Below, piece after piece: positions 22,200-50,430 of a DNA stretch of 64,000 nucleotides (within the stretch, counting starts at the first letter, position 1; each line of letters starts with the position of its first letter). The notes beneath the pieces are model-generated. The model worked only from the letters and a program-made list of their open reading frames with translations. It was not told the origin of the DNA and did not search any database. The translations under genes and the position numbers were made by a program. The DNA is from a virus. Taxonomy: Duplodnaviria > Caudoviricetes. The DNA lies in IMG/VR virus record IMGVR_UViG_3300021387_000688; one strand, given 5' to 3'.

Positions 22200-22214
22200 A
22201 TTAAGAATATAGGT

Positions 22215-23228: not shown

Positions 23229-23244
23229 AGTGTTTTTCCCTTTT

Positions 23245-23338
23245 AAGACGCGCCAACGTCTTTTATATTTTTAATTAGTAGAAAGGGTTAGAAAGAAATG
23301 AGTAAATCCTTTCAAGAGGTTGGCGCCTCCTGTCCCCT
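23245..23338 (-). promoter_or_regulatory. Two hairpins with complementary loops (kissing pair) upstream of the endonuclease
   Basis: Minus strand: CAGGAGG-CGCCAA-CCTCTTG and AAGACG-TTGGCG-CGTCTT. Confidence 0.55.
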
Positions 23339-23356
23339 ATGATTTTAGTTAGCCCC

Positions 23357-23983: not shown

Positions 23984-24095
23984 CCCAAACATCCTCTTCT
24001 TCGCCTTTATAAGAACCTTCTTCATAGTCAGGAAGTTCTATAACAATATCTTCAATAATATCTTTTTTAACTTCTGGTTTCTGATTTTCATCCAT
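23976..24095 (-). CDS. Small acidic protein (39 aa)
   Basis: MDENQKPEVKKDIIEDIVIELPDYEEGSYKGEEEDVWDD; operon context. Confidence 0.45.
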   Translation of the reverse strand: MDENQKPEVKKDIIEDIVIELPDYEEGSYKGEEEDVWDD

Positions 24096-24097
24096 AA

Positions 24098-24271
24098 TTA
24101 AATTCCTGTACAACTTGGTACATATTCTGTAATACGAACAGTATATCCATTTGCACGAAGTTCTTTTGCAAGGGCTTCTATTTTGGCTTCATAACGCTCT
24201 TTGCCAGTAGAACAAACAAGATTGCCTTCTTTGTCGTATGCACGGAGTTTATATTCAGTGTATGCTATCAT
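24098..24271 (-). CDS. Small early protein (57 aa)
   Basis: Class I promoter and AAGAGGTAACAG-ATG; MIAYTEYKLRAYDKEG... Confidence 0.7.
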   Translation of the reverse strand: MIAYTEYKLRAYDKEGNLVCSTGKERYEAKIEALAKELRANGYTVRITEYVPSCTGI

Positions 24272-24370
24272 CTGTTACCTCTTGAATATAATATAGAAAA
24301 ATTCAGTTCCGAGTTTATCTATATTTTCATTATATTTGAACTAAATATTCTATTAAAGGAGAATATAATT

Positions 24371-26206: not shown

Positions 26207-26226
26207 TTAAAAAATTGCAAAATAAA

Positions 26227-26253
26227 AGCCCCTTCTAAGAAGGGGCTATTTTT
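26227..26253. terminator. Bidirectional terminator
   Basis: AGCCCCTTC-TAA-GAAGGGGCT flanked by A and T runs. Confidence 0.75.
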
Positions 26254-26260
26254 ATGCCTT

Positions 26261-27070
26261 TTAAGCTAACACTTCTCCAATTGGATCATCGAATTTCCAA
26301 TTCTCTTTTAATCCCAATTCAGGATGAGCCATTGGTAACAACTTTAGTTTTGTATTTGGATTCAAGTGCATCTTTTTGATTTTGTTATAAACTTCAAATG
26401 ACTTTGGAGCTAAACCTTCTCGGATGAAAACATCTAAAGCATCATATGTAAAGCCCATATTATCTTCATCACTCTTTCCACACATTCCATCTGAAGGGGT
26501 TTTGTGAACAAGCTCTTTTGGAAGTTTCATATAGTCACCTAAAGCAACAACTTCTGTTTTTGTAAGCTGGTTCAGCAAAGAGAAGTCCCCGCAGCAATCT
26601 CCATACTTTGTAGAGTAACCAACAAAGTCTTCTGAATAGTTACAAGTGTTGCAAACAAAACCGCCAAGCTGAGCAGCAATACCATAAAGTGTTACCATTC
26701 GTAAACGGGCTGGGGTATTTGTTGTAAATAGAGGGGTCCACTGATCAGGAGACTCTTTAATATCGGATGTATCAATCTGATCTTTCAAAGCATCGTAAAC
26801 CGGCCCAATGTTTACTTTCATTGACTGAATTCCCAAAAGTTTGCAAACTTTAATAGAGTCGTCAAGGTCCATCTGGACACCGTTTGGCATCATTACGCCA
26901 ATTACCTTTTTTGGACCTAAAGCTTCAGTCAAAAGAGCAGCACAAATGGTACTGTCTTTTCCACCTGAAATCCCTAAAACTGCAGGACCTTTCTTATCCT
27001 TAAAGAAGTCTTTGATAAAATCAAGGAGCTCATAATAGACTTCCTTTACATCAAATTCGTTTGGACCCAT
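26261..27070 (-). CDS. nadE: NH3-dependent NAD+ synthetase
   Basis: LGISGGKDS, NTPARLRM, GYSTKYGD, LTKTEV, KTPSDG, DEDNMGFTY. Confidence 0.95.
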   Translation of the reverse strand: MGPNEFDVKEVYYELLDFIKDFFKDKKGPAVLGISGGKDSTICAALLTEALGPKKVIGVMMPNGVQMDLDDSIKVCKLLGIQSMKVNIGPVYDALKDQIDTSDIKESPDQWTPLFTTNTPARLRMVTLYGIAAQLGGFVCNTCNYSEDFVGYSTKYGDCCGDFSLLNQLTKTEVVALGDYMKLPKELVHKTPSDGMCGKSDEDNMGFTYDALDVFIREGLAPKSFEVYNKIKKMHLNPNTKLKLLPMAHPELGLKENWKFDDPIGEVLA

Positions 27071-27073
27071 AGG

Positions 27074-27589
27074 TTACTCCTCTATGATGTTGCACTGACA
27101 TGCTTTCATAACAGCTAAAGCAGCCTTATGATTTTCCGGATTCAAATCTGCACAACAATTTGCCAAAACATTTACTTCAACATTGTCAATCATTTTGATT
27201 GCAAGTGCATTGCTTACGACACAAATAGATGTTACTGTTCCACAGATTGTAACTTCGTCTCCTGGACGAATAAATTCTTTCCAACCTTCGAATCCGAAAT
27301 GTTTTTTATCTACATAGAGTGTTTCATCTGTAGCTTCTTCTGCAAGTTCAGGGACGATTTCCCAACCTTCTGTACCTTCAATACAATGCTTAAATGGAAG
27401 TTTAATTCCTTCCATTGTTTCAAGATAATCTTCCCCATGGCTATCATGAGTAAAAATCAAATTCATTCCTTCTGCTTTTGCCTTCTGCAAAGCTTTCTTA
27501 ATGTTTGGAATAATTGCCACTGCATCCTTATTTGCCAATGTGCCTGTACAGAAATCGTTCTGCATATCTATTACAATAAAATGTTTCAT
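27074..27589 (-). CDS. pncA: Nicotinamidase (isochorismatase family)
   Basis: VIDMQNDF, THDSH, HCIEGTEGW, DKKHF, GTVTSICV; AAGGAG SD before ATG 27589. Confidence 0.9.
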   Translation of the reverse strand: MKHFIVIDMQNDFCTGTLANKDAVAIIPNIKKALQKAKAEGMNLIFTHDSHGEDYLETMEGIKLPFKHCIEGTEGWEIVPELAEEATDETLYVDKKHFGFEGWKEFIRPGDEVTICGTVTSICVVSNALAIKMIDNVEVNVLANCCADLNPENHKAALAVMKACQCNIIEE

Positions 27590-27590
27590 A

Positions 27591-28172
27591 TTACTTAATC
27601 TCCTTAATTTCAAACTTTGATGATGTATTTACTCTTGAAGCATACATATACCCGATTAAACCCATTCCACCTTTCTTTAACAAAGTGGCCTGGTTTTCCA
27701 ACCTATCTACAAAGACTTCACAATCTTCTGTTTTGTCCAACTTCTGCTTTTTCTTGTTTAAGAATTTGTTTAATAAACCTTTATCAACAAATTCAAAAAC
27801 ATGCATCAAGTTGTTAAAGTAGGCTGGGTTTCCATTGAAGGTTGCAATCTCTTTTAAGGAGGATTGTGCAACTTCAATTCCTGTTTCCTCTCGGAATTCT
27901 CTTACTGCGGCTTCTACTGGACTTTCATTTAAGTCAACTGTACCGCAAGGGAATTCAATTGTAGAATGTTCGCAGCCCCATCTGGTCTGTTTAACAAAAA
28001 CACAAACTGGATCTACGGTTGCGTCCTTTGCGATAATCATTACCCAATCATTGCAGTTGAGTCCTACTGGCTTGAATTCCAAGTTTTCGTATTCTTTTTC
28101 AACTACAATAAAGACTGGGGTTTTAAGAAGCTCGGTCTCTTTTACTTTATTTAAAAGTTTTGGTGTAACCAT
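27591..28172 (-). CDS. Nudix hydrolase, ADP-ribose pyrophosphatase-like
   Basis: VKQTR...IEFPCGTVDLNESPVEAAVREFREETG Nudix box. Confidence 0.85.
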   Translation of the reverse strand: MVTPKLLNKVKETELLKTPVFIVVEKEYENLEFKPVGLNCNDWVMIIAKDATVDPVCVFVKQTRWGCEHSTIEFPCGTVDLNESPVEAAVREFREETGIEVAQSSLKEIATFNGNPAYFNNLMHVFEFVDKGLLNKFLNKKKQKLDKTEDCEVFVDRLENQATLLKKGGMGLIGYMYASRVNTSSKFEIKEIK

Positions 28173-28175
28173 TTT

Positions 28176-29462
28176 TTACTCCTTTGACTTCAAACGCCAA
28201 TCAAGAGTTCTACGAAGGTAGTCAACATATTCCTGGCTGCGGCTCATTGTCTTTCCACTGTCATCAGAAAGTTTTGCAACATCCTTTCCGTTTACAAGCA
28301 CGACTTTTGCAACAATGTTAAGAGGATCAATTGACTGAGGGCCACTCCAATATGTTCCAATTCCGAAAGCTGGCTTTGCTCTACCTTCAATGTATCTGCA
28401 AAGCTTGTCCCAAAGTTCAAGGCTACTAATAGAGTTACTGAAAAGAAGTGTTTTTGTTTTTGGATCAATTCCAAGAGACTTGTAGTGCTCAATCCAATCA
28501 TCAGCCCATTTGAAAGGATCACCTGAATCGTTACGAACTCCACTGAAAAGTGTTGCATAAGTTTTCTGCATATCTCTGCGGCAAAGTTCATCTCCGATCG
28601 TATCTGTAAGCCAAATACCGTTCCAAACTCCGTACTCTTTTACCCAAGCTTCCATTGCAAACTTGTTACTATAAGCAGGATTCAAAGTTGGATTTCCCTG
28701 ACCAACGCATTCAATGAATTCATGAGCGCAAGTTCCAACAGGGGTGACATTGTATTTTTTTGCCAAAAGAACGTTTGAAGTTCCAATAAAGCCAGGAAGT
28801 TTTTCTTCTGCAAGACGGCCAATCAACCAATCCTGAGCTTCGTAAGAAAGGCGGCGACGTGCGCCAAATTCAGACCAAGCTCCAAAATGGAAGTCTCCTT
28901 CCTTCATCTGCTTGATTTTTTCTTCTGTCTTTTCTTTGAATTCTTTTAAGAGCTTGTCATAGTCGTAGTGATTGTGATAATAAACTTCTGCAAAAATCTC
29001 AAGTACTGGAATTTCGTAGTATTCAATATATTCCTGAACACCATGGAAGTTTAATCCAATACCGAACTTTTCATCTTCAGTGAAAGTAAAGTCTTCAAGA
29101 CATGGGTGCCAGAATTTCAAGAAGTTGAGATAATCCCTTTTAATCCAAGGACATTTCTTTCCAAGGTATTCAAGTTCATCTACTTCAAAACGAAGGGCAC
29201 AATAAGCTTTGATTTGATTTTCGATTTCGGTACGATCTTTGGCATCGTATTTTTCTGGATGTTTGGAATCTTTTCCAACGTTACGGGCTTTGAAGTCCCA
29301 AGTTGTTTTAAGATTTCCGAATTGATGATGATAAGTCTGGCCCATACTGAATTTGTACAAGTCAGTATCAAGTAATGATTTTACCATTGGAGGATACTTC
29401 AATCCGAAGAACTCCATTACTTCTGCTTCGTCAGCAGTTCTTTTGCCGTGAATTTCCCACAT
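28176..29462 (-). CDS. pncB: Nicotinate phosphoribosyltransferase
   Basis: SLLDTDLYKFSM, SEFGARRR, GTSNV, GTCAHE, LTDT, VRNDSGDP, FGIGT, KLSDDSGK. Confidence 0.95.
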   Translation of the reverse strand: MWEIHGKRTADEAEVMEFFGLKYPPMVKSLLDTDLYKFSMGQTYHHQFGNLKTTWDFKARNVGKDSKHPEKYDAKDRTEIENQIKAYCALRFEVDELEYLGKKCPWIKRDYLNFLKFWHPCLEDFTFTEDEKFGIGLNFHGVQEYIEYYEIPVLEIFAEVYYHNHYDYDKLLKEFKEKTEEKIKQMKEGDFHFGAWSEFGARRRLSYEAQDWLIGRLAEEKLPGFIGTSNVLLAKKYNVTPVGTCAHEFIECVGQGNPTLNPAYSNKFAMEAWVKEYGVWNGIWLTDTIGDELCRRDMQKTYATLFSGVRNDSGDPFKWADDWIEHYKSLGIDPKTKTLLFSNSISSLELWDKLCRYIEGRAKPAFGIGTYWSGPQSIDPLNIVAKVVLVNGKDVAKLSDDSGKTMSRSQEYVDYLRRTLDWRLKSKE

Positions 29463-30201: not shown

Positions 30202-33200
30202 ATGAACACTTTATCATCTACAGTTTTTAATGCGTCAATTCCAACACAATTGACTAACGAAATCCCACATTTGAACATGTGGAATATTTTGAATAAACAA
30301 ATTAGAATGAATTGGACTAGGGATTTGGTAGGTAAATCCAAAACCTATTTTGAGGATTATAATTCTATAAAAACAGTGTTGGGAGAAAAATCTCCCAATT
30401 ACAATTCAAGAATTGTAAAGTTTACAGATCCTGATACAAATCAAAAAGTTACAGCAAAAATCAATAAAGTTAATTTCGATATAAATGGTGCTTGGGAAGT
30501 AGAAGCTGATTATCTTATGCACGAGATGACCAGATACTTATCTAAGCTCTATCCAGATGATTTAGGTTCTTTAGTTACTCTTACTGAAAAAGAAAGGCAG
30601 TCATATTTCAATGAAGCTGCCCATATGATTCATTCTTATTTTGATACAGAGCAAATTACTGTAAATGATGATACTGTAGATTTGTATTTAAGAAACAGAT
30701 TCTTAATGAATATTACAGCTGTCCGCTCAGAGACCGGTATTGCAAAACAGGAAAGTGATTTAATCAGTTTGTTAAATGACGGTACTTTGTATGCATTCTC
30801 TGGTTATACTACATTCATGGATGATGAAGGTAATGGTGTTGTTACTGTACAATCCCAAGAATGGGAAACTGTAAACAACATTCGCTTGTTCAAATACTTG
30901 TTCAGTACAGATAGGTCTTCTTGGAAAACAGCTATTGAAGCCGTTAATGGTAAAATCAACAATGATGGTTTAGCTTCTATGTTGGAAGAGTACGTAGAAG
31001 ATGTAGATGATGTAAAGTTGTTGGATAGTGGGGTACTTGAAAACTTCAAAATATTTGACACTACAGGCTTGGCAAATGAAAAAGAAGTTGCAGAAATTTA
31101 TGTAAAGCAATTAAACGATTTATTAGGTAATGGTGTTTTGTTAAACAACTTAGGAGAAAACGCCGCCATTGAATCTGTAATAAAAACTTACGGAGATACA
31201 AGAGTAGACGTACCTTTAACAAGAGATCATGCAATGGTATTCTCTAATGACATTACAGGATCTGGAGAAGTAAGTGTATTGTTTATTAACAATGAAGAAG
31301 ACTCAGATCAGTTTGGTACTGCAGATACAAAAACTCAATTACTTTGTGCAGAAAAGATAATCACTCAAGATGGTCAATGGAAAAGCTTAGATAAATTACC
31401 TTTATTTAGAACTGGTAAAGTAAGGTTCTCAGATTCTTATAAATTGGTAGTCGGAAACTACTTGATGAATCATATGGTTCGTTTGTATGAATCTTCTGAA
31501 GAGTTCCAGGACTTTGTACGTACAGCTTCAAAGAACCCTAACGTAAGATTGGAATGTGATTTCTATGCAGGAGATACATTATATTTCAAGGGTATTATTT
31601 CAGATGATTTCTTAAGAGATGATTTCTTAGAGCATGCGCAGGAATATACTAGAAGTAATTACTTTGTAAAAAACAATTGGCTCAATAACTTCTCTTTGGA
31701 AAACGTATTAATGTGCATCAACAAGATCGACGAGAATACTCCTATTGCATTAGATGCTACAGACGATACTCGTGTAGAGTGGAAACAGGTAAACCCTCAA
31801 GTAAGGCATTTAGGTCAAGTAATGTATCTTAAGAATGCATTAACTTACATGAAGGGTACTGAAGAGGAATCTCTTTATGGAGAACTTTTTGCAGAGAATG
31901 AAGCTTGGAGATCAATTGATTGGAATGAATTAGAATATGGACCTTTGTTAAGAGATGCAGAAATAGTAGAAGAAATCATCCATTCACTTTCCCAGAAGTA
32001 TGAAATCCCGGAAGATGAGCTTTGGGATAATGAAAATAAGAAAGTAGATCCTTCTAAATATACAAACGCTCAATTGATAGATATGTACAATGACATGAGT
32101 CGTCAAGGTATGTATGAAAAATCTCAAACTATTGGGCACAGTAATGTATCTATTACAGATACAATGTATAGTATCAACACTATTGAATTGCCAATAGAAA
32201 GTTTAGTATTTGTAAAAGATTTCATTAAAAACAATACACGTACTGAAAGGGTAAAGAAGTATAGTCCTACATTAAACGTAGATTACTTCTATAAAGAATA
32301 TATTGTTAACGATCAAATTGAATGGGAAGGGGAATTAGTAGAAGCTCATGCCCTTGTAGATATTTCTACTTCTGGGTCTGATGTAAAAATGTATTCTTTG
32401 AAAACTTATAAAGGTTCTATTTTCGGAGACGATGTAGTAACAGTAGAAGAAGATATTTCTAGGTTGGTAGAAGAAAGGGGTGAAATCTTAGCTTGTATTA
32501 TTGATAACTACGAAGGAAAACATTTCGTAAAAGTTTATGAAACCTTTACAAGAAATGGAGATTGCTATGTTAAGTTCTACAAGATGGGTGAACCTGATTT
32601 GAAAATGTCTACTTTTGAAAACAAAGATATTTATTTAATCTTGGACCTCGATGAAGAGTTGAGTGACGCAAAGGTAGAAGAATTTTCAAAAGAAAGAAGA
32701 AAAACCAAGAAAGTAAATATTTATAGAAACGACCAGTTCTTCTTAATTTCTAGAAGTTGGGAGCCTATAACTCAAGAATCCCTAAACTATATGTTGGATA
32801 ATACAGAATTGGATGCACCTGAAAATTATGCACGTACTTCAATTCTTTCTACAAAGACTACTGTTCCTAGAGTATTAACAGAATTGGAAGACACTGTAGT
32901 ATTCGATGGTAGTGCAGATGATGCAAAAATTGGATTGGTAAAAGATTTAATAGCAGAAAACAAATCTTTGTATTTGGATTCTTCTATTCGTATATTGCAA
33001 CATGTTCCACTTAGTGTTAGTACAACTCAGTGGAGTGAGGATTATGGAGTACTTTCATTCTTATATGAAAGTGGAGACTTGCCTGCACAGATTTCTTTCT
33101 ATGATGTAGATATTTCTTTGTACGATCCTCTTCAAGAAAATGTAAACTTCTTAAAGAGGGATGACTTGCAAGACTTAGGAATGGATGAAGCTCAAAAGGT

Positions 33201-36200
33201 TTATAACAGAAGATATGTTGTTTGGGGTAGCGTTGTATGGGATGCAAATACAGATCGATCTGTTGAAGTTTTGAGAACTATTTGGGCATCTTATTTCAGT
33301 AACTTCGAAATATACTCTACTGAAGATATTATTCCTTCAGAGTTGGTTGCACAATCTTTAGGTGTAAAGAATACTTATTCTCAAAATATTTTGAATTATG
33401 ATTACGCAGAGAATGAAGCTAATCCTACAGAACACTGGAATGTTAGTGTCGTATCTAACTTGAGAAGTAATTCTGTTACAAGTGGTGTAATTGCAAACTG
33501 TGCAGCTATTAGATTCCAGGAAGAAAACTTAACTGGAGTAAATAAGGATGCAAATGGTAACATCCTTTTTGAAAACGTATTTGGTAGAACAAAAGCCCTT
33601 GATGTAGGAAACATGTTCTATAGAACAGGTGTTGACGATCCAAGTGCAGGTTTATCATTTGGTGAAGAGCCTATTACTTTTCATAACTTAATAACAGAAG
33701 ACTGTGACTTAACAATTTCTTACGATAACGATTTTAAAGATATCGTCTTTATGAAATATAACCCAGAAAATGCTACTGTTACATTGCATGTAAAGAAAGG
33801 TATCGAAGAAAAGAATAGTAAGTTTACAGAAGGTAGTTGTAGTTATAATAACTTGGATAAACTTATTTGGACAGATGTTACTTCTACAGGATTATTCTCT
33901 GGAGTGTTAGCTAAAGTAGATGTTTTACATGCTAAGATAGATATTGTAAAATATTTGGAATGTATACTTAAAAACTATTCTGTTTTGCACCAGCAAGAAT
34001 TAAAAGGTGAAGTAGGCACTTCTTATACAAATGTAGATGAAAACAATAATGTAAAGATGACCGACATCTTAAATTATACTTATACTTATGCAACTATTGG
34101 TTCTGTAATTCCAGTATTTGCAAGAATGGTAGGTAGTGAATTAGTTATTACAGGATTCTTGTTAGATAAGAAAGGTGAGAATAAATACCACTTACATGTT
34201 TTCCAATTCGGTGCTCCATTTATTGCTCCGGTTGCAAAGACTGTAATTAATACTGACAAATATAATAGATTCCCTGTATTGGAAAAAGACTTTGAAAAAG
34301 TTGTTAAAGAGATTTCTGTATATCCTATTTATATTCCTACTTCAACTTATGATTGTAACTTGAATTTTAAGACAACGGGTGGAGATATTATTCCTAATGC
34401 TATCACAAAAGATAGTCAAGTAGAAGTTTTGGATGAAACTTTAGACACTGAAGATGGGGACGAAGGTAAAATAGATAGAAGCCGTTTGCAGATATCTTAC
34501 TTAGATACAGATGGTAAAAAGAAAAATATCTTCTTGAATAATAACCTTAAGAGATTTAAGGAGTATAAGAATTGCACTGTTTCTTTAAGTACAAGGGCTG
34601 ATGAGGATAACGAAAATTACTTGGATTGTATAATGACTTTTGATGGAGAAGATTTAGATCTTTCTGCTGAAGGCCTTATATCTTTGTACGATATGAAAGT
34701 TCCTGATTTCCGTACAAGATATGATCGTGCATTAGACAATGAAATTAAAGTTGTAGAAAGAAATACAATCTTGGATGATTTACACATTACTGCTTTCAAG
34801 CCTAATGATTTAGATCCTTCTAAAACAGATTTGATTTTGATGAATCCTTTAGATGCAAGTAACTTTAATGTAACTAATGCAATTGAACAACTTACCCCTA
34901 TTGACGAGAATGTACACACTCAGAAGGTTGTAGGAGGAAAAGGTTATATTGCAGATTTGTGGGAAGATGCAGGTTATCCAAAGATTGGATATTCTTACTA
35001 TAAGAGAGCTTTCATTGCAAATGGCGTAATTTCTCCAAACGACATTACAAGGGTTACTTTAAGTGATGAATCTTTAATAGAAGATGGTATAGATTTGACT
35101 AAGCACATAACTGCAGATGACCCAGTTACTTTGATTTTACACAATCCTCCTTCTTACTATATTGGAGCAGGTGTTAATCTGGAATTGGATACAGGTACAT
35201 ATAGTACTGCAGATGGTCCTTATAAAATCTTGCATGAAGAAACAAAATATGAAGGAGAAGATAAGGGTTCTTCTATCAATTACATCTTGGCCGGTAAACA
35301 TTCTATTGTAGTTGTAAAGGTTAATTTTGAAAACACAAAAGTTCAAGTTACAAGCGTATTTGAACTTCCAGAAGATGTTTCAAACATTAATTACGTTAAT
35401 GGAATATTCACTTTAGAAAAGAATGGTGAAACATATGAATTAAGGTCTACTGGAAATGGTAATTTACCTATTACCACAGATATGTTCTATGCAGGTCAAG
35501 TAAATAATGATACTGCAACTTTCGATGGTTACGTAGCTGTAAAGACTGTATATGATGGAGAAAATACTCAAGATGTAAGAATTAATAAAGTTTCTCAATT
35601 GGTAAATGCGCATGCAGGGTATGAAGATTTAGGACCCGTTAGTATCAAAGCTATTACAACTGTAGGTAGATATACAATCAAGTTTGATGATAAAGATCGA
35701 GTTTACGGAGAAGCTAGATACGGTGGAGAACCTTTAAGATATGTTACAGATCCTGCAGCATTAGAGATATTTGATGCTAGTGGATTTAAAGGTCAAATAT
35801 TAACTGAAGGTTCTGAAGACGATCCAGGATCATTCTCTGTAGAAAGCATTGAAGGTCTTACAGATTTGGATAAATTGAAAGACTGGATTGTTAAAACATT
35901 GAGGAATCAATTCGGTGGAGACCCAACTTTAAGCGACCCTCAATTTGAAGGCTCTATGGAAAAGAGTCAGGATTACTATTACACTACTGCTCAAGGTTCT
36001 GGATTTGCAGCATCAAAGAGTGAATGGGTAAAAGATGAGTTGATGAGAACTCTTCTAAACATCACTGCAAATGATGTATACAATAAACCAGAAGGTACTA
36101 AGCGCTGGAGAAAGGTAATTTCTAAAGATACAATTTATGTACCTACTCTTGAAGAAAGAGACGTAGAAGTAGTTTACGATGATAACTTAACTAAATGGCA

Positions 36201-39200
36201 GAAAGTGTATGTAATAAATTCAATAGGTAATACTCTTCTTAAAGATTGTACAGACCCTGAAACATTACAGGCTTTCGTAAAGGCTATCTTGCCAACCAAC
36301 TTTATTACAAGAAAAAGACCTATCATAAGTACTGAAGCTTCTTTGGACGGTACAAAAGTATTATGGGATCAAGACGCTTGTGCACTTACAGTATTTGATA
36401 AAGATGGTAACATTTCTAACAGAATTGCATATCAATACTTAGGATTAAATTACCCTGTAGATCCTGATAAGAGTGGAAAGAATGCTACAGAAGATTGGCT
36501 CATACCTAATAGAATTTATTTGAAAGCAGATGGTACTACTTTCAACAAAGCATTTAATATGGAAACTAGTGATGGAGAAGGTACATCCGAATATGACCAA
36601 ATGTATAAAGAATTTGGAAAGTATGAAGTAAAGGATAAAGTAAATGGTACAATCACAATAGTGGATGGTGCTTTATATATGCCAACTCTGTTAGCTAATG
36701 TTAATGAGGATGACATAGAAATTGTTACTCCAGATGATATGAAGTTCCAGCAGTTAGTTGCAATTTCGAAGGACGTTGAAAAGTGGAACGCCTATGTAGA
36801 TTATATGAAGAAGTTGTCTTGGTTGGCACCTGATTATAGTAATTATATGGTTTTCAATTCTCCTAACGCTATAATCAACTTCCAGAAATTAGATAATAGA
36901 TTGGAAGGATTAAAGAACGCTGGCAAGATTACTGAAGCGCAATATAACAATGCTTCTAATGTGATTAAAAATATTAACACTACTGCAAAAGATGATGATT
37001 GTGCAACAGGTATTATTAAAGGTTCTCCTTATTTGTCTTTCGATAATTATAAGAGTAATCTCTACTTAACTTCTATAGGAGTAGGAGTAGATAGTGGAAC
37101 TAACAAACCTTTGTATTTCAAATCTTTAATTACCAACTCTGGTATATTAATGAGTAGTGGTAAAGAAGCTTACATTTACGGTACAATGAAGTGGCCTACA
37201 TTTACAGAGATTAGAAATCTTTGTGAAGATTCTATCAAGGCAAAATATTCAAAGATGGAAGGTACAGAAAAGGATAATGCTGTAAATGAAGATTTGAATA
37301 AGTTGGCAGATTCATTAAATGCTAGATATGCTAAGTTTGAAACTACTAGTGAAGATGGTATGGACCAATATAAAGTAGGAGAGAATGAAGATGTAGCTCC
37401 TGCAGATACTAAGTTCATGATAAGGGTTAATTTAGATACCGGAGCTATTACACCTATGGGAGGAATGGATGCAGGTAAGACTGCTTCATTCAACAACTTA
37501 TATGCTACTACAATTGTTAATAATAAGATTATGGCAATTACAGATGTAGGTATAGGAGAATTAGGATCTGTAGGTGGTAGTGAATTTAATCCTAGTGTAG
37601 CAGGCGGAGAACAGATTAATGCATTTACGGGAGAGTTGATAAGTGCATTAAAAGATGCTAAAGCCTTTAATGGAAAAATTTCAAGTGAAGGTTCTAAGTT
37701 AACTTTAGGATCAAGTGGAACAACTGTTCATAATCAGCCAGCCGTATTTACGAAGGTAGGTGTAGTAGGAGCTACTAGTTTCACTTTGGAAGACGATGTC
37801 ATTATGGCAGATGAGGGAGACAATACTCCTATCAATGTAACAATGGTTGTAATGGATACAACTAAAGATAACTTCCAATACGGTTATGGGGATGTAGAAG
37901 GTTTGGATCAATTAAATGCCGCAGGTTCTATCTTCCAAGTAAACAGTTCTGAATATGCAGACTTTGCAACTTATGAAATTGCAAACGGCGATCTTATAAG
38001 TTACTATGCACAGAAGACTGAAGGTGAAGAAAAAACTTGGATATCTGTAGGAAGTAAAATACAAGGATTGTTCGAACCTAGACAAATCGTCAATAGAGAA
38101 AGAGATGAAAATGATACCATCCAGATAGAAAATGTAAGCGTTGCCAAGAGTGTTTATCCTAAACCTTCAGATATTGATGATGAATTGTTAGGTAACTTCT
38201 ATGACTTAGATGCAGAAGGAAATATTAAAACTGTAAAGAATACTTATGGTAGAGAAATCTTAAGGCTTGCTGATTCTACAGAACAGTGGGGTAACTTAAT
38301 TAAGAAAGTTCCTGGACTTGAAGGAAAAGATAAAATATTAGGTGACTTAACAAGTATGGTAACTTACGAAACATTGGAAGGTGGTTCTATAAGTATAACC
38401 CCTACTGTATATCCTGAAGAAATAGATCCTTCGAAGGGAGTTGCTTGGCCAGGAGAGTTAATTGGAAAGGGCTATGATTATGTAAGTAAAATAGGTCAAC
38501 CTATTCCAAAGCTGGTAAAGGTACCTAAAAACAGTGTACAGAACCTTCCTTATACTCAAGCAGAATTTATGATAAATGGAGATTCTGACATTTATGTAGG
38601 AGAAGATTATTTGAAATTGACCGCCACATTCAATAAGCCAAATGCATTATCATCTGAAAAATTCGATGATAATAAAATGAATAATACCCAAGTAACTTCT
38701 ACAGAATTCTATAAAGATTTTACAGAGAATCATCCTTACACTGCTGCTAGGGATGGTTTAGTTACTAGACAGTTGAAAATTAAAGTAGTTAATCCTACTA
38801 CTCAATTGCCTAAATTGGTAGATATTTCAAATTATAGAGTTACAAATAGCAATATATCTAAAGTCTTTAGTATACTTGGTACAGAATCTACAGAAATTGT
38901 AATACCTGCAAACGGTTACGGACAATCTGTAAGAGGTGTTTATACAAAACCTTCTGAATGCAAGTTTGAAGATGATTTATTCTATATGAAAGGAGAAGTA
39001 CAAAACGAGTACGGCGAAACTATTTACTGGGTAGACGGTAGTGATTTGACAGTGAAAGAAAATGGATTACCTGCAAACTATGAACCTATGAGAAGAATGG
39101 TTTACAGATCTTTCAAACAGGCCGATGCACATTTACTTCCAAAGTTGGCTACTAAAGAAAAGACTTCTTATGAAAACCCAGCTGTTGTAATTGACTTGAC

Positions 39201-40071
39201 CCAAGAAAAACTTAGAGTAGATAATGCAAATACAATTGTATTTAAGTCTGAAGATGTTTATCCAGATTTCTTTATTAGTAAAGAACGTTCGGCTTCTGCC
39301 AATAAACAAGCTGCTTACAACCAATTCTATTCTAACGTAGAGTTCTCTTGTAGGGTTATGTACACCAAGTTAGGATTTGATGAATCTTCAAGACAAGTTG
39401 ATTTAATTGCAACAGCGGGATTAGATCGTCAGTATGCTACAAGATTGTATACAGATAAAAAGCATATTCCTACATTTACAAAGTATTCTATAGGTGGAGG
39501 AAAGTTTGCAAGAACTGGCGGTTCTTTCGTAGCAGATAATAAATTGTATAGAGTTAGCGAAGATGGTAGAAACCCAATGTACTTAAATGAAGAAGGTGAG
39601 TTAACTCAAACTCCTAATAGTTTAGGACCTGTACATGCAATTGACTATGAATACTTATTACAATTGTATAAGGGATTGGGAAACATCTTTACTTCTATTA
39701 AAGTAACAAACGATGTAGGTTCAAGTGCTTATGACTTGAGTGGTTTGAATATTTCTAACAACTGTTTGTTACCAGATTGGAAAACAAAGACTGTAGGATT
39801 TACTAACAACTCTAACTACAAGATCTTCGTAATGATGAAAGATTTGAATGAAGAAGATTTCGCTTACCAGACTGTAGAAAATGAGGCCGGAAGTAAATCT
39901 TTGTTGAAGATTACTACTCCAACTACAATCTCTGTAGAATATCCTAACACCTTTAAGGAATACAACTTAGCTTACATTAAAGATAAACAAGGAAATATTG
40001 TAGCTAAAGCTTACTTTGATAAGCATAAGGTTAAGGAAGATAGTTTGTTAGTATTCTCTAAATTAAGTTAA
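30202..40071 (+). CDS. Giant (3289 aa) putative virion structural protein
   Basis: Uninterrupted ORF, acidic and beta-rich; ACTAAATA 4 nt before ATG, like the other structural genes. Confidence 0.6.
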   Translation: MNTLSSTVFNASIPTQLTNEIPHLNMWNILNKQIRMNWTRDLVGKSKTYFEDYNSIKTVLGEKSPNYNSRIVKFTDPDTNQKVTAKINKVNFDINGAWEVEADYLMHEMTRYLSKLYPDDLGSLVTLTEKERQSYFNEAAHMIHSYFDTEQITVNDDTVDLYLRNRFLMNITAVRSETGIAKQESDLISLLNDGTLYAFSGYTTFMDDEGNGVVTVQSQEWETVNNIRLFKYLFSTDRSSWKTAIEAVNGKINNDGLASMLEEYVEDVDDVKLLDSGVLENFKIFDTTGLANEKEVAEIYVKQLNDLLGNGVLLNNLGENAAIESVIKTYGDTRVDVPLTRDHAMVFSNDITGSGEVSVLFINNEEDSDQFGTADTKTQLLCAEKIITQDGQWKSLDKLPLFRTGKVRFSDSYKLVVGNYLMNHMVRLYESSEEFQDFVRTASKNPNVRLECDFYAGDTLYFKGIISDDFLRDDFLEHAQEYTRSNYFVKNNWLNNFSLENVLMCINKIDENTPIALDATDDTRVEWKQVNPQVRHLGQVMYLKNALTYMKGTEEESLYGELFAENEAWRSIDWNELEYGPLLRDAEIVEEIIHSLSQKYEIPEDELWDNENKKVDPSKYTNAQLIDMYNDMSRQGMYEKSQTIGHSNVSITDTMYSINTIELPIESLVFVKDFIKNNTRTERVKKYSPTLNVDYFYKEYIVNDQIEWEGELVEAHALVDISTSGSDVKMYSLKTYKGSIFGDDVVTVEEDISRLVEERGEILACIIDNYEGKHFVKVYETFTRNGDCYVKFYKMGEPDLKMSTFENKDIYLILDLDEELSDAKVEEFSKERRKTKKVNIYRNDQFFLISRSWEPITQESLNYMLDNTELDAPENYARTSILSTKTTVPRVLTELEDTVVFDGSADDAKIGLVKDLIAENKSLYLDSSIRILQHVPLSVSTTQWSEDYGVLSFLYESGDLPAQISFYDVDISLYDPLQENVNFLKRDDLQDLGMDEAQKVYNRRYVVWGSVVWDANTDRSVEVLRTIWASYFSNFEIYSTEDIIPSELVAQSLGVKNTYSQNILNYDYAENEANPTEHWNVSVVSNLRSNSVTSGVIANCAAIRFQEENLTGVNKDANGNILFENVFGRTKALDVGNMFYRTGVDDPSAGLSFGEEPITFHNLITEDCDLTISYDNDFKDIVFMKYNPENATVTLHVKKGIEEKNSKFTEGSCSYNNLDKLIWTDVTSTGLFSGVLAKVDVLHAKIDIVKYLECILKNYSVLHQQELKGEVGTSYTNVDENNNVKMTDILNYTYTYATIGSVIPVFARMVGSELVITGFLLDKKGENKYHLHVFQFGAPFIAPVAKTVINTDKYNRFPVLEKDFEKVVKEISVYPIYIPTSTYDCNLNFKTTGGDIIPNAITKDSQVEVLDETLDTEDGDEGKIDRSRLQISYLDTDGKKKNIFLNNNLKRFKEYKNCTVSLSTRADEDNENYLDCIMTFDGEDLDLSAEGLISLYDMKVPDFRTRYDRALDNEIKVVERNTILDDLHITAFKPNDLDPSKTDLILMNPLDASNFNVTNAIEQLTPIDENVHTQKVVGGKGYIADLWEDAGYPKIGYSYYKRAFIANGVISPNDITRVTLSDESLIEDGIDLTKHITADDPVTLILHNPPSYYIGAGVNLELDTGTYSTADGPYKILHEETKYEGEDKGSSINYILAGKHSIVVVKVNFENTKVQVTSVFELPEDVSNINYVNGIFTLEKNGETYELRSTGNGNLPITTDMFYAGQVNNDTATFDGYVAVKTVYDGENTQDVRINKVSQLVNAHAGYEDLGPVSIKAITTVGRYTIKFDDKDRVYGEARYGGEPLRYVTDPAALEIFDASGFKGQILTEGSEDDPGSFSVESIEGLTDLDKLKDWIVKTLRNQFGGDPTLSDPQFEGSMEKSQDYYYTTAQGSGFAASKSEWVKDELMRTLLNITANDVYNKPEGTKRWRKVISKDTIYVPTLEERDVEVVYDDNLTKWQKVYVINSIGNTLLKDCTDPETLQAFVKAILPTNFITRKRPIISTEASLDGTKVLWDQDACALTVFDKDGNISNRIAYQYLGLNYPVDPDKSGKNATEDWLIPNRIYLKADGTTFNKAFNMETSDGEGTSEYDQMYKEFGKYEVKDKVNGTITIVDGALYMPTLLANVNEDDIEIVTPDDMKFQQLVAISKDVEKWNAYVDYMKKLSWLAPDYSNYMVFNSPNAIINFQKLDNRLEGLKNAGKITEAQYNNASNVIKNINTTAKDDDCATGIIKGSPYLSFDNYKSNLYLTSIGVGVDSGTNKPLYFKSLITNSGILMSSGKEAYIYGTMKWPTFTEIRNLCEDSIKAKYSKMEGTEKDNAVNEDLNKLADSLNARYAKFETTSEDGMDQYKVGENEDVAPADTKFMIRVNLDTGAITPMGGMDAGKTASFNNLYATTIVNNKIMAITDVGIGELGSVGGSEFNPSVAGGEQINAFTGELISALKDAKAFNGKISSEGSKLTLGSSGTTVHNQPAVFTKVGVVGATSFTLEDDVIMADEGDNTPINVTMVVMDTTKDNFQYGYGDVEGLDQLNAAGSIFQVNSSEYADFATYEIANGDLISYYAQKTEGEEKTWISVGSKIQGLFEPRQIVNRERDENDTIQIENVSVAKSVYPKPSDIDDELLGNFYDLDAEGNIKTVKNTYGREILRLADSTEQWGNLIKKVPGLEGKDKILGDLTSMVTYETLEGGSISITPTVYPEEIDPSKGVAWPGELIGKGYDYVSKIGQPIPKLVKVPKNSVQNLPYTQAEFMINGDSDIYVGEDYLKLTATFNKPNALSSEKFDDNKMNNTQVTSTEFYKDFTENHPYTAARDGLVTRQLKIKVVNPTTQLPKLVDISNYRVTNSNISKVFSILGTESTEIVIPANGYGQSVRGVYTKPSECKFEDDLFYMKGEVQNEYGETIYWVDGSDLTVKENGLPANYEPMRRMVYRSFKQADAHLLPKLATKEKTSYENPAVVIDLTQEKLRVDNANTIVFKSEDVYPDFFISKERSASANKQAAYNQFYSNVEFSCRVMYTKLGFDESSRQVDLIATAGLDRQYATRLYTDKKHIPTFTKYSIGGGKFARTGGSFVADNKLYRVSEDGRNPMYLNEEGELTQTPNSLGPVHAIDYEYLLQLYKGLGNIFTSIKVTNDVGSSAYDLSGLNISNNCLLPDWKTKTVGFTNNSNYKIFVMMKDLNEEDFAYQTVENEAGSKSLLKITTPTTISVEYPNTFKEYNLAYIKDKQGNIVAKAYFDKHKVKEDSLLVFSKLS

Positions 40072-40121: not shown

Positions 40122-40835
40122 TTAGATTGAATTGATCAAACTGAACAATTCTGCTCTAGCTTCTGGCTGAGTTTCAAATACCCCGCGAAGTACTGAAGTT
40201 GTAGTTGTAGCATCTTCAGATTTAACACCACGAACTGCTACGCAGCTATGAGTAATATCTTTCATTACTACTGCACATCCTACTGGGTCCAATACATCTA
40301 CCATTGCATCTGCAATCTGTTCACTCAATTGTTCCTGAATCTGGAAACGATGTGCATAATCTCTTGCCATGCGAGGAATCTTTGACAATCCACATACTTT
40401 GTCTTTTGGAATATAAGCTACATAAACAAATGAATCATCTTTATATGTTCCAAACGGTGCAATATGATGTTCACATTGTGAGAATAACTTAAACTTGCAA
40501 ATAACAATACCATTCTGGAAGTAAGATGTTTTCTGTACTCCAGTCTTTTCTCCATTAATGGCATTACCGCGTTCAACGTCAAATACTTTTTTGATATGAC
40601 GTTTTGGATCTACCATGTATCCTGATGCAAATGCTTCAGTCCAATACTTTGCAAGACGATGAGGAGTTTCTTTCATTCCATCTGGAAGCTCTTCTTCATC
40701 TGTAAGTCCCATTGTTTTTTTAAGAAGATGTGCAAACATTGCTTCATCTTCTTTGTTAAAAATGTTTTTGATTTCTACCTCAGATTCGGTAGTTTCATAG
40801 ACAGGCTGTCCGCCTTTGTAATTAATGTGTTTCAT
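40122..40835 (-). CDS. folE: GTP cyclohydrolase I
   Basis: ETPHRLAK, SQCEHHIAPF, GLSKIPR, QIQEQL, HSCVAVRGV. Confidence 0.95.
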   Translation of the reverse strand: MKHINYKGGQPVYETTESEVEIKNIFNKEDEAMFAHLLKKTMGLTDEEELPDGMKETPHRLAKYWTEAFASGYMVDPKRHIKKVFDVERGNAINGEKTGVQKTSYFQNGIVICKFKLFSQCEHHIAPFGTYKDDSFVYVAYIPKDKVCGLSKIPRMARDYAHRFQIQEQLSEQIADAMVDVLDPVGCAVVMKDITHSCVAVRGVKSEDATTTTSVLRGVFETQPEARAELFSLINSI

Positions 40836-45654: not shown

Positions 45655-46320
45655 CTAACAACGATTTGCAACTACTTCACTATCTTCAGCGATAGCTGTC
45701 TGTCCACTATAATTAACATCAATAAAACTTGTACTGCGTCTCAGGTCTTCTGAAAAGATGTTAATTTCTGCCATTGCGGCTTCGTAATCTGCATAAGCGT
45801 CTCCGGTAACTCCGAAGTTGTATTCCTTCAGCAGATTTCTAAAATCATTTAAGAAATTCTTAGCCTTTTCCTTAAACATTTCGTCGTAACGGATCTGCTG
45901 GAAGTGCTCCTTAACAGGTTCTGTACTGAAATCCTTTGCAGTGTACTTACGAGCTGATTCCTTAGTGATACCTAACTTGCGGTTAACCCAAGCGGCCATC
46001 TTTCCAGCTTCGTGAGTAAAGAATTCTCCAAACTCTGCTCTTGATTCATCGTTTACAGAATAGCTCTTGTAAATCTCTACAAATTCGTTTTCAATGAAAA
46101 TGAACTTTACGTAAGCATCGATCTTAATACGCTTACCGTTTGTAGCACTGCAGTTAAAATTCAAATACCAACTTGTATCGTAATTTGTCATACAATACTC
46201 GTTCAGTTCATTCTTATATTTTTCAATGATTTCCTTCTTAGAGCAAGAAAAGATACGAGTAGTTCCTGGCTTAGAAATATCCACGCGATTGTCGATTACT
46301 AAAAATTCCTGATTTTCCAT
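45655..46320 (-). CDS. Hypothetical early protein
   Basis: Class I promoter and AAGAGGTACAAATT-ATG at 46320. Confidence 0.7.
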   Translation of the reverse strand: MENQEFLVIDNRVDISKPGTTRIFSCSKKEIIEKYKNELNEYCMTNYDTSWYLNFNCSATNGKRIKIDAYVKFIFIENEFVEIYKSYSVNDESRAEFGEFFTHEAGKMAAWVNRKLGITKESARKYTAKDFSTEPVKEHFQQIRYDEMFKEKAKNFLNDFRNLLKEYNFGVTGDAYADYEAAMAEINIFSEDLRRSTSFIDVNYSGQTAIAEDSEVVANRC

Positions 46321-46447
46321 AATTTGTACCTCTTGATAATAATATAGCTTAAACCCGGAAATTAGATTTCTAAAATGTGAAAATATTTTTAGCAAAATAA
46401 AACCCCCTATTTTTAGGGGGTTTGTTTAGATTCGGAATCGGATTCCG

Positions 46448-47454: not shown

Positions 47455-48249
47455 ATGAGTGATTTCGTAGAATTATATAGGATTAGTCCTAAAGCATTTG
47501 TAGTTACAATTTCTATCGTTTCTTTGATAGTTGTATGTGCTGCTGTTGCTATTTTTTATTTCATTGCAAAGAATAAGATGTCTGTAAGGATCGGTTCCTT
47601 TAAAATCGATATGCATGAAAAGGAATCTGTAAAAGAACCTGAAGACAAATTAAACAAAGAAATCTACCAAGCTAAAAAGAATGTAGAAGATTATGTAAGA
47701 TCTGTTTTAGCTAAACAATACGATCAGGTAGTTCCTTTTTTACAGTCCCTCCGACCTATTTTTAATCGATTAGTTTTTAGTATTTTGAATGAAGCTGTAG
47801 CTGAAAGTTTAGGAGTTGAAAGAGAAATCCGGATTCCGAAGCCAGATGAAAAATGTAAAGTTCCAGGTAGTCATTATAAAGTAGAACTTGTAAAAACATA
47901 TATTACAGAACCTCAAACCAGATTGTTCACTAACCTTGTTGAAAGTACAGTAGATTCTTTAATTGGTAAACTTGAAAGAGAAATCTACAATATGTTAGTT
48001 AATAACAATATTGGAAAGAATAGAGATGAAGTTAGATCTTATATACATATGAAGAGTGAAAACATTGTCGGGGTTATAAGAAATGTTTTGTGCGATGCTT
48101 ATAATAATCTAAGTAATAAGAATTTATTTGATACTAAGAAGTGGTGGTTAGAAGTAGGTATTAACTATCCTGAAGATTGGATTGAAGATAAATTATATAA
48201 ACTATTCGCGCTTTGTATGCAATGCAGATATAGTGATTTTGATGAGTAG
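47455..48249 (+). CDS. N-terminally anchored membrane protein (late)
   Basis: One TM helix; CTAATTAA 4 nt before ATG. Confidence 0.6.
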   Translation: MSDFVELYRISPKAFVVTISIVSLIVVCAAVAIFYFIAKNKMSVRIGSFKIDMHEKESVKEPEDKLNKEIYQAKKNVEDYVRSVLAKQYDQVVPFLQSLRPIFNRLVFSILNEAVAESLGVEREIRIPKPDEKCKVPGSHYKVELVKTYITEPQTRLFTNLVESTVDSLIGKLEREIYNMLVNNNIGKNRDEVRSYIHMKSENIVGVIRNVLCDAYNNLSNKNLFDTKKWWLEVGINYPEDWIEDKLYKLFALCMQCRYSDFDE

Positions 48250-48293
48250 AAAAATAGCCTCCTTTTCAGGAGGCTTTTATTTTGGTTTTTTAA

Positions 48294-49136
48294 TTATTTT
48301 GCTTCTTCTTGAGTACCTTCAGTAGCCATCAAAGACTTGTTGTAAGCATCCTGGCGAAGATAGATTTCAATATTTCTACGAGTCCTGTCTTCAAGATCCT
48401 TACTTGCATTTACACCAAAGAGTTCATCCGCTTCTGCTCCACGTTCGTAAGCTTCAGGAGTAACTGCCTTATCATAAACCATTGTAATCTTTTTAATACC
48501 TACAATAGAGGTTGGGCTATACAACCAATCTCCTGGAGCCTGGTGAGTTACAACTTCAATTCTTGTTAGGCGGATATCTGTCATTTTCAAACCAGCTACT
48601 GGAATCTGCGCGGTAGATCTATTTTTAGGGTCTTTAACATATTCAGTAAAATCAATATGGGCTGTAAATTCTACCATTGATTCGATTGTAGATGTAGCAT
48701 CTGCGGCTTTGAATTTTCTTTTATTCTCTTTACCATTCTGTAACCAAAAGATTTCAACTTCATCATATCCACGATTAAGAGTCATTGTAATATCCATACT
48801 CTTAATGGCAGCTGCATTTGTGATATAACCTGCACCGTTATTAGCTTCATTGAAAGAAGGCTCTACGAATGCGATTGCATAACGGCTGTCTGAATATCTT
48901 GGAGCTGAATCAGTTCTAATACAAAGTCCATACTTTTCAGAAAGTACTGGATTAAAAAGATTTCTACCTGGCTCGTAAACACCTGAAATACCTACGGCTC
49001 TAGAATTTTCGATCCAATCATAACCTGTGTCAAGAACATCAGCTTTTGTATTACAATCAAATAAAGTTGCTTCATCTGCAAATACAATACCTGTAAACAT
49101 TACAAGCGCTACCAAAATTGAAATAAACTTCTTCAT
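48294..49136 (-). CDS. flaA: Spirochaete flagellar filament sheath protein FlaA-like
   Basis: Signal peptide ending VFA-DEATLFD; GYITNAAAIKSM and KITMVYDKAV...MATE resemble Treponema FlaA motifs; adjacent to flaB. Confidence 0.7.
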   Translation of the reverse strand: MKKFISILVALVMFTGIVFADEATLFDCNTKADVLDTGYDWIENSRAVGISGVYEPGRNLFNPVLSEKYGLCIRTDSAPRYSDSRYAIAFVEPSFNEANNGAGYITNAAAIKSMDITMTLNRGYDEVEIFWLQNGKENKRKFKAADATSTIESMVEFTAHIDFTEYVKDPKNRSTAQIPVAGLKMTDIRLTRIEVVTHQAPGDWLYSPTSIVGIKKITMVYDKAVTPEAYERGAEADELFGVNASKDLEDRTRRNIEIYLRQDAYNKSLMATEGTQEEAK

Positions 49137-49241
49137 TTTGTTTTATTTTCTCCTTTAATTTAATGCAATATAGGGGAGGTAAAATCCTCCCCTTCAACTT
49201 TTTATTTTACTCTGGCACGAACCCACCTGTAGTTGGCGATT

Positions 49242-50093
49242 CTATTTTAACAAGGCAAGTACGTTCTGAGAAGAATTGTTTGCCTGAGCCAACATAGCTA
49301 CAGATGCCTGTTGCAATACTTGGTTCTTAGTATATTCTGTAATAGACTGAGCCATATCAGTATCGCGAATACGAGATTCTGCAGATTGTGTATTTTCGGC
49401 CGCAATGTTGATACCCTTCTGGGCCATCTCCATACGGTTCTGGTAAGCACCAAGATCTGCTCTTTGCTTTGTTACATTTTTCAAAGCTTCATCTACCGTT
49501 GCAAGGGTTGTACTTGCTTCATCTGGACTTGCGATAGAAATTACATTAGATTCCTCTCCCTGCTGCCCCTTCAATCCAAGCGCAGTAGCTGTCATTGTTC
49601 CAATGTAAGCTCTAATATTCTGATCCATATTAGCTCCAATCTGGAACTGCATAACCTGATCTGACTCCCTAGAGAATCTACCTGTCAAAAGGTTCATTCC
49701 ATTAAATTGTGCAGAAGATGCAATTCTATCTACTTCAGATACTAACTGGCTTACTTCAACTGCAATCTGCATGCGGTCTTCATCTGAATAAACTCCATTT
49801 GAAGCCTGTACTGCCAATTCTCTAATGCGCTGAAGTACATCTGTAGTTTCTGCAAGATAACCTTCTGCTACCTGAACAAATGAAACTGCATCACCGATGT
49901 TTCTTGAAGCCTGATTAAGACCCCTAATCTGAGATCTCATTTTCTCACTTACTGCCAAGCCTGAAGCATCGTTACCTGCTTTGTTAATTCTTTCTCCTGA
50001 AGAAAGAGCTTCTACTGATTTCTGAAGGTTCTGTGTGTTAAGACCTTCCATTCTGCTTGCGAACAAGCTACTCATGTTGTGATTAATGATCAT
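49242..50093 (-). CDS. flaB: Flagellin (Treponema-type FlaB core protein)
   Basis: MIINHNMS...[30 protein letters not shown]...[12 protein letters not shown]...[11 protein letters not shown]...MLAQAN. Confidence 0.97.
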
Positions 50094-50102
50094 AAAATAA
50101 CC

Positions 50103-50180
50103 AACTCCTTTTGTATTTTATTTAAGTAACATCCCTGCTACTTATATTTATATTATCGGGACATTTCTTAAAAAACTTTA
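50103..50180 (-). promoter_or_regulatory. Sigma28 (FliA) promoter and CsrA-type GGA hairpin in the flaB leader
   Basis: TAAAGTTT-N12-CCCGATAA (50180-50153); GTAGCA-GGGA-TGTTAC hairpin (50141-50126); SD AAAGGAG. Confidence 0.8.
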
Positions 50181-50181
50181 A

Positions 50182-50346
50182 TTATACTAATAAGTCTATC
50201 AACTTTTCGGCCTTCTCTTCTTCTGTTAAAGGCTTTTCTTCTTTAGACTTCTCAACGTTAATCTTAATACTTTCTTTATTTGCATTAAGATTTTTTCCTT
50301 GCATTATGGAGGAGACCGGCTCCTTTATTATTGGATTTATTTTCAT
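50182..50346 (-). CDS. Small protein (54 aa) with two GGA hairpins in its leader
   Basis: MKINPIIKEP...EKLIDLLV; leader CAAAA-GGA-TTTTG and GTCAA-AAGGAG-TTGAC. Confidence 0.6.
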   Translation of the reverse strand: MKINPIIKEPVSSIMQGKNLNANKESIKINVEKSKEEKPLTEEEKAEKLIDLLV

Positions 50347-50430
50347 ATGTCAACTCCTTTTGACTGCTACAAAATCCTTTTGGATACCAATTACTTAATT
50401 TAGTAATCCCCTCCATAACAATATAGAATG

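Follow-up and report, generated by a model that had tools for sequence, protein, structure and literature searches.

A flagellin gene and a gene for a shortened relative of the flagellar sheath protein FlaA lie side by side in a stretch of 64,000 nucleotides from the virus record IMGVR_UViG_3300021387_000688 of IMG/VR (Duplodnaviria; Caudoviricetes), the whole of which is referred to below as the window. The carrier is a T4-like phage of rumen Treponema of about 400 kb, with intact, selected genes for both FlaB and a shortened FlaA. The most likely role of the two products would be export and assembly into the periplasmic flagella of the host, which would be remodelled or sustained by them. 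Both open reading frames (ORFs) are intact and located on the minus strand:

49242..50093, minus strand: flaB, encoding a FlaB3-type core flagellin of 283 amino acids (aa)
48294..49136, minus strand: flaA-like gene, encoding a compact FlaA homologue of 280 aa; residues 1-20 are a Sec signal peptide, and a jelly-roll body and a helical arm at the C-terminus are predicted to follow

The surroundings are those of a phage, as had been held in the initial annotation of the window, which was made from the sequence without database searches. Genes for a baseplate wedge protein (phrog_219), a split family A DNA polymerase (phrog_17) and an HNH endonuclease were found together with many ORFans, and the identical FlaB sequence is present on contigs, the longest of which has 397,621 bp. 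No further flagellar family was detected among the approximately 50 window ORFs that were scanned, in agreement with the annotation, which had noted no other flagellar genes around the pair.

The first gene had been described as encoding a full-length Treponema-like flagellin, and the searches bear this out. Both Pfam flagellin domains are present (Flagellin_N with 138 bits, cut-off 26.6; Flagellin_C with 86.7 bits, cut-off 23), and the best solved chains, with alignment from end to end, are the Treponema denticola flagellins 9pil, 10pp (FlaB3) and 10pl (FlaB1). The E-value was 2.6e-111 with FlaB3 (PDB 10PP; PMC13439194), with two gaps of 1 aa, and 7.8e-110 with FlaB1 (10PL), with gaps of up to 4 aa. 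In T. denticola, FlaB3 (TDE1475) is a minor flagellin of the core that joins the periplasmic flagella late and at their distal end. The phage protein resembles it in being colinear over the full length and in its short D1 loop, the insert bearing N147 and S152 of FlaB1 being absent from both. All four glycosylation sites of FlaB3 (S115, S126, T137 and T167; PMC13439194) are kept, at S115, S126, T137 and T166 of the phage FlaB. Seven of the eight inter-subunit contacts of the T. denticola core (PMC13439194) are likewise retained, namely Q88, R91, E92, D106, R220 (=R223), E222 (=E225) and R241 (=R244), the eighth, N277, being replaced by S. The termini of the flagellin to which chaperones bind are conserved as well. 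A FlaB this close to the native protein argues for real incorporation into the filament.

Unlike FlaB3, the phage protein is encoded by a phage and falls in a clade of its own. Its nearest bacterial proteins are those of rumen and gut Treponema with 72-77% identity (T. bryantii 75%). Three FlaB paralogs were found in each of five host Treponema genomes. In a careful maximum-likelihood tree, of the kind the initial annotation had proposed for comparison with the host paralogs, the window FlaB formed one clade (support 98/95) with six proteins whose phage context is known and nine close proteins from the database. This clade is nested in a group of 34 rows (100/99) with the host paralog of 281-285 aa, which is encoded downstream in a tandem gene pair; the label FlaB3-type for this group rests on length, tandem gene position and the identity of 10PP as FlaB3. 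The phage FlaBs are accordingly placed by sequence as one clade inside the FlaB3-type paralog group of Treponema, and about 10 positions are fixed differences between them and the host FlaB3-type proteins.

The identity of the second gene, annotated as FlaA-like, was upheld by profile, transitive homology and fold, but not by direct searches, failure in which the initial annotation had named as grounds for dropping the call. No direct match to the protein was obtained in Pfam (E<=10), NCBIfam, PHROGs, the PDB sequences or 50,697 deposited phage genomes, and a HMMER scan against 1.84 billion representatives returned only 24 clusters. Nine relatives found by phmmer (E 1e-23 to 2e-4, 27-31% identity) exceed the 25-bit cut-off of the Pfam FlaA family, PF04620, with scores of 29-80 bits. 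A joint profile matches the solved T. denticola FlaA chains over profile positions 97-271 (9pim_BR, E 4e-25; 10pl_Ab, E 1e-22) and the long FlaA of the five host genomes with 88-96 bits. With a profile of the close clade only, the comparison with host FlaA reached a hhalign probability of 69% (E 4e-5). When a homologue of the clade was sought in the five Treponema genomes, the sole match was the shared signal peptide.

The signal peptide reported in the initial annotation is recognizable. The N-terminus, MKKFISILVALVMFTGIVFA followed by DEA, when read by eye, consists of a KK n-region, a hydrophobic core of 14 residues and a cleavage site between VFA and DE, and contains no lipobox cysteine. 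The site VFA-DEA aligns with AFA-DEA of host FlaA. Export of FlaA does not proceed via type III secretion.

An AlphaFold (AF2) model of the FlaA-like protein, built from the wider alignment, had a predicted local distance difference test score (pLDDT) of 80 and displayed a jelly roll and a C-terminal helical arm; it replaced an earlier, poor AF2 model from the close clade alone (pLDDT 61). For both models, FlaA1 (9cyn) is the top match in the PDB (Foldseek E 1e-5, template modelling score 0.43-0.56; VIA Z 11.8 over 175 aa), with unrelated jelly-roll carbohydrate-binding modules close behind (Z 9-11, within ~1 Z). The proximity of these modules is compatible with FlaB, the FlaA-like protein or both belonging to the virion or being secreted to bind carbohydrates, without relation to flagella, and several compact FlaA-like genes have no flaB in their flank (L085, L086, L134 and L137). 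Such a role is nevertheless improbable: a cleavable Sec signal peptide routes the protein to the periplasm, away from virion assembly in the cytoplasm, the C-terminal arm with its LMATE-type motif is retained along with profile homology to the sheath protein, and no flaA of the window clade lacks a flaB partner. A complex prediction of FlaB with mature FlaA gave a score of 0.00 and was run with no controls, and it carries no weight either way.

Upon comparison with the major sheath protein FlaA of Treponema (T. denticola TDE1712, 349 aa; PDB 10PL and 9PIM; PF04620), the phage protein shares the Sec signal peptide with a cleavage site between (A/V)FA and (D/E)E, the IYDKA motif and, in the model, the jelly roll and the C-terminal helical arm ending in a LMATE-like motif. 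It differs in the lack of a direct Pfam match, in its phage-like contexts throughout and in its size, with 280 aa against 349-374 aa in hosts (362-374 aa in those of rumen and gut). Identity to host FlaA is 16-19%. Three segments of the N-terminal half of host FlaA (~35, 17 and 27 aa) are missing, including the region of S86, and the tail is shorter. The product of 48294-49136 is, as judged from profile and transitive homology and the modelled fold, and only through these, a diverged, compact FlaA.

In a quick tree, the compact FlaAs formed one group (support 94), sister to the long FlaA of the hosts, and a branch with 99% support divides this group from two short host paralogs. Each of the five host Treponema genomes (G001-G005, loci L092-L096) encodes one long FlaA and two short FlaA-family paralogs in tandem (237-256 aa), which probably correspond to FlaA1 and FlaA2, known as minor sheath proteins from T. 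denticola. An origin of the phage gene from these short tandem paralogs was rejected based on the absence of a profile match to them and on the 99% branch.

Every context of a compact FlaA that was examined is phage-like. The gene is accompanied by T4 rIIA/rIIB in L134 and L135, by ThyX in L086 and L137 and by a methyltransferase, a radical S-adenosylmethionine (radical-SAM) gene and a 5'-3' exonuclease in L085, and it is paired with flaB in L136, L053 and the window clade. The sequences indicate that the compact FlaAs are a group found only in phage-like contexts and sister to host major FlaA. In L053 (5950-7773), whose FlaB belongs to the phage clade of the FlaB tree, flaB and compact flaA are located on a 306-kb contig which had been binned into a metagenome-assembled genome (MAG) of the Bacillota, 'Candidatus Fimenecus'. 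This MAG contains no FliM/FliN gene, and the contig is therefore almost certainly a mis-binned contig of a Treponema phage.

The ratio of nonsynonymous to synonymous substitutions (dN/dS), which had been suggested as a check, was about 0.09 for both genes, with pairwise medians of 0.087 for flaB and 0.096 for flaA and with dS near or past saturation, pointing to strong purifying selection on both. The order flaB to flaA is found in nine loci (the window, L002, L123, L122, L001, L126, L121, L053 and L136), with a spacing of ~100 nt to 2.8 kb across the phage loci, and the identities to the window copies drop in step (FlaB/FlaA 87/87, 87/79, 82/84, 79/77 and 69/59%). An independent assembly of 2.2 kb (L130) is 98-100% identical over the upstream gene, the micro-ORF described below, flaB and the start of flaA. 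The downstream neighbours at 47455-48249 and 45655-46395 adjoin flaA again in L002, L125 and L131. The G+C content at third codon positions (GC3) is 0.32 for flaB and 0.23 for flaA, compared with 0.22-0.34 for other window genes. Taken together, selection, gene order, parallel identities, conserved flanks and GC3 indicate that these phages have long carried and maintained the module in their genomes. A further search of IMG/VR for related loci yielded one short locus.

The pair as passenger genes, recently captured from a host and functionless, or as a product of chimeric assembly, has next to no probability left and was rejected. A slightly higher GC content in the 48-50 kb bin is all that speaks for it. 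A dN/dS of this size over saturated dS, a monophyletic phage clade that is just 72-77% identical to the closest hosts, and a GC3 like that of the phage all contradict it. The junctions of the pair are spanned by independent assemblies in which pair and flanks recur, so that the chimerism considered in the initial annotation does not apply to this part of the contig.

Two of the loci deviate in structure. L001 (1-20843; ENA ERZ28612970 scaffold_1, 940,564 bp) contains flaB and flaA among dense small ORFans; an insert of 2.8 kb with an Endonuclease_NS gene parts flaB from flaA, and a GGDEF gene (cyclic di-GMP synthase) follows flaA. As a single phage genome the contig would be of exceptional size; it could also be a mis-join. 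In L121 (3136-3930; JAEIGA010000001.1, 377,952 bp), FlaA is 90% identical to that of the window and the flaB ORF of ~265 aa is 61% identical; this flaB may have been replaced or interrupted.

The pair is embedded in a compact unit on the minus strand (48256-50382), in which the following further features were located, listed from the upstream end:

50182..50346, minus strand: micro-ORF of 54 aa directly upstream of the flaB promoter, of uncertain membership in the module
50153..50180, minus strand: promoter motif of the sigma28 (FliA) type, TAAAGTTT-N12-CCCGATAA, located 60 nt before the start codon of flaB
50094..50152, minus strand: flaB leader with a 9-bp hairpin (50123-50144) carrying GGGA in the loop, followed by the ribosome-binding site AAGGAG (50105-50110)
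49172..49193, minus strand: GC-rich intergenic hairpin between flaB and flaA, 8 bp with 6 GC, without U-tail on the coding strand
48256..48275, both strands: bidirectional intrinsic terminator closing the flaB-flaA unit, with an 8-bp stem (5 GC pairs) and a T-run on either strand

The micro-ORF had no family match in the family searches. It is kept upstream of flaB in L130 (98%), in L002/L120 (53%, E 4e-10) and, with weak similarity, in L123 and L122. The intergenic hairpin is possibly an attenuator or an RNA-stability element.

The pattern TAAA-N14-17-CCGATAA has a single match in the 64-kb window, with 0.22 expected by chance, and is like the sigma28 motifs upstream of host Treponema flaB genes. 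Such a motif also precedes T. denticola flaB2 (PMC9481697). The phage flaB, with its own sigma28-type motif, differs in this respect from T. denticola flaB3, which belongs to a sigma70 operon (PMC9481697). The motif is confined to the lineage of the window (the window and L130), the other phage flaB loci having different upstream sequence without it, and a sigma28 promoter as a feature of the whole clade was rejected.

The fold of the leader has a z-score of -3.9. In L002, L123, L122 and L001, too, the leader contains a hairpin whose loop includes GGA (ACGGAU or AGGGAU) ahead of AAGGAG, with different stem sequences, so that a GGA-loop hairpin and a GGA-containing ribosome-binding site are kept in five phage flaB leaders. 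By analogy with the two-site architecture known from CsrA-controlled flagellin leaders, CsrA may bind the flaB leader. Because of these five leaders, the perturbation of FliW-CsrA signalling put forward in the initial annotation is a possibility to be weighed: the phage FlaB, its leader RNA or both would act as a decoy that titrates FliW, FliS or CsrA in the cytoplasm and thereby rewires the CsrA regulon or the flagellar checkpoint. The conserved termini, to which chaperones bind, would suit such a decoy. It would leave unexplained, however, why a Sec-exported FlaA is co-inherited under equally strong selection, and why surface glycosylation sites and filament contacts, relevant only in an assembled filament, are retained. 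A decoy is considered unlikely, if the best placed of the readings in which the proteins do not build a working filament.

That FlaB and FlaA made by the phage enter the periplasmic flagella of the Treponema host during infection is the reading we favour, with somewhat better than even confidence. A host FliA-type promoter would drive flaB, and the leader hairpin would probably let host CsrA/FliW control its translation. FlaB would leave through the flagellar type III export channel, receive O-linked glycans from host enzymes at its conserved Ser/Thr sites and polymerise at the growing tip as host FlaB3 does. FlaA would be exported via Sec, lose its signal peptide after VFA and coat the filament surface. 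As a result, filament growth would be sustained in the infected cell, or the make-up and mechanics of the filament would be altered, or both. Remodelling is likelier than plain resupply because FlaA is so diverged and shortened, and a trimmed sheath protein of this kind points to an altered filament and not to a one-for-one exchange of parts.

The initial annotation had proposed that the phage remodels or jams filaments. Action of the phage on the filament fits intact, selected genes that keep features for export, glycosylation and assembly; jamming is not favoured, the contacts for polymerisation being conserved. In another reading, filament poisoning, the phage subunits would cap, weaken or mis-sheath host filaments and so paralyse the infected cell. 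The low identity (16-19%) and the three missing segments of FlaA would agree with such poisoning, as would the lower stability and the missing sheath of FlaB3-type cores in T. denticola. Disrupted interfaces would be expected of a poison, though, and here assembly contacts and glycosylation sites are kept, FlaB being only ~10 fixed changes from the host type. Poisoning is judged a little less probable than the decoy. The decoy, poisoning and virion or secreted-binder readings are each possible but fit fewer observations than incorporation into the filament, and a passenger or chimera is excluded.

Two further suggestions of the initial annotation found no support. Because the flagella of spirochaetes lie in the periplasm, out of reach of phages, superinfection exclusion through them is unlikely. 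Antigenic change was not supported.

Several points weigh against incorporation into the filament as the role of the pair. Assembled filaments are stable, which makes a benefit of resupply within one infection cycle uncertain. The restriction of the sigma28 motif to the window lineage implies that host-style transcription is not general in the clade. The remaining points concern the sheath. In T. denticola, FlaA couples to FlaB1 via N147 and D162 (PMC13439194). The phage FlaA is without the region holding S86, one of two FlaA-FlaB1 contacts, and the phage FlaB, like FlaB3, is without the loop bearing N147 of FlaB1, the other contact. FlaB3 in T. denticola forms the unsheathed distal segment of the filament, and FlaB3-type cores are less stable (PMC13439194). 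With FlaB3 filaments unsheathed, the phage FlaA may coat phage FlaB or host cores, or act otherwise.

A more specific and more tentative proposal, to which we give rather less than even credence, is that FlaB and the compact FlaA are a co-evolved core-sheath pair which builds a phage-specific distal filament segment of altered stiffness or curvature. The pair would then belong to a larger set of genes with which a lineage of giant T4-like phages takes over spirochaete motility, and swimming would be re-programmed, not merely maintained.

The nearest studied system is prophage FRphi of Enterobacter, which swaps in its own flagellin and alters host motility and immune recognition (PMC13418256). 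FRphi encodes a flagellin isoform, FliC-P, and an RNA-guided repressor, TldR (PMC13418256). The two systems have a phage-encoded flagellin isoform in common, that of FRphi entering the host flagellum and changing its properties. FRphi, a temperate siphovirus, infects a host with external flagella and carries a single flagellin and a repressor that silences the host gene. The phage described here differs in being T4-like and ~400 kb in size, in its core and sheath pair and in the periplasmic flagella of its host. CsrA-type leader control has been discussed for FRphi-related loci (PMC13418256). TldR is derived from TnpB, and no OrfB_IS605/TnpB domain was found among the ~50 scanned window ORFs, nor any adjoining flaB. 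In L002 (15092-15854; also on a 290-kb ENA contig), a TnpB-like gene (HTH_OrfB_IS605, OrfB_IS605 and Cas12f1-like_TNB) is located ~9 kb downstream of flaA and may be relevant in view of the origin of the FRphi repressors.

In psbA of cyanophages, a phage auxiliary gene replaces a labile component of the host. The flaB-flaA pair is similar in that host-derived structural genes are under purifying selection in a lytic phage and presumably sustain a host function. It differs in its target, a motility organelle and not metabolism, and in a FlaA that is far more diverged than plain replacement needs.

No description was found in the literature of phage-encoded FlaB or FlaA, of flagellin on jumbo or huge phages, or of rumen jumbo phages of spirochaetes, and neither FlaB nor FlaA of this kind was found in the deposited phage genomes. 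Here, both core and sheath subunits are carried by a virulent-looking giant phage. If the proposed role is correct, phage-driven remodelling of flagella, shown so far only for the temperate FRphi, extends to periplasmic flagella and to lytic infection, and the question is raised whether phages steer the motility of infected rumen cells. FlaA has been stated to be exclusive to spirochaetes (PMC9481697), a picture that is widened by a compact FlaA family on giant phages. The compact FlaA also offers a natural minimal sheath protein for comparison with the 2026 filament structures of Treponema and Leptospira. In practice, the genes can serve as a marker that ties uncultured phages of ~300-600 kb to Treponema hosts and flags mis-binned contigs.

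Elsewhere in the window, an NAD-salvage cluster (21497-29462) was identified with genes for NAPRTase (28176-29462), a NUDIX protein (27591-28172) and NAD synthase (26261-27070). Further genes are those for GTP cyclohydrolase I (40122-40835) and for an SPFH/Band 7 protein (19707-20624). The region 30202-40071 on the plus strand is taken up by an ORF of 3289 aa without Pfam match. On the minus strand at 2-3576, two neighbouring BspA-type leucine-rich-repeat proteins are encoded (LRR_5, 159-177 bits), with a possible role in host adhesion or receptor binding. A comparable LRR_5 gene lies beside the compact FlaA locus of L135.

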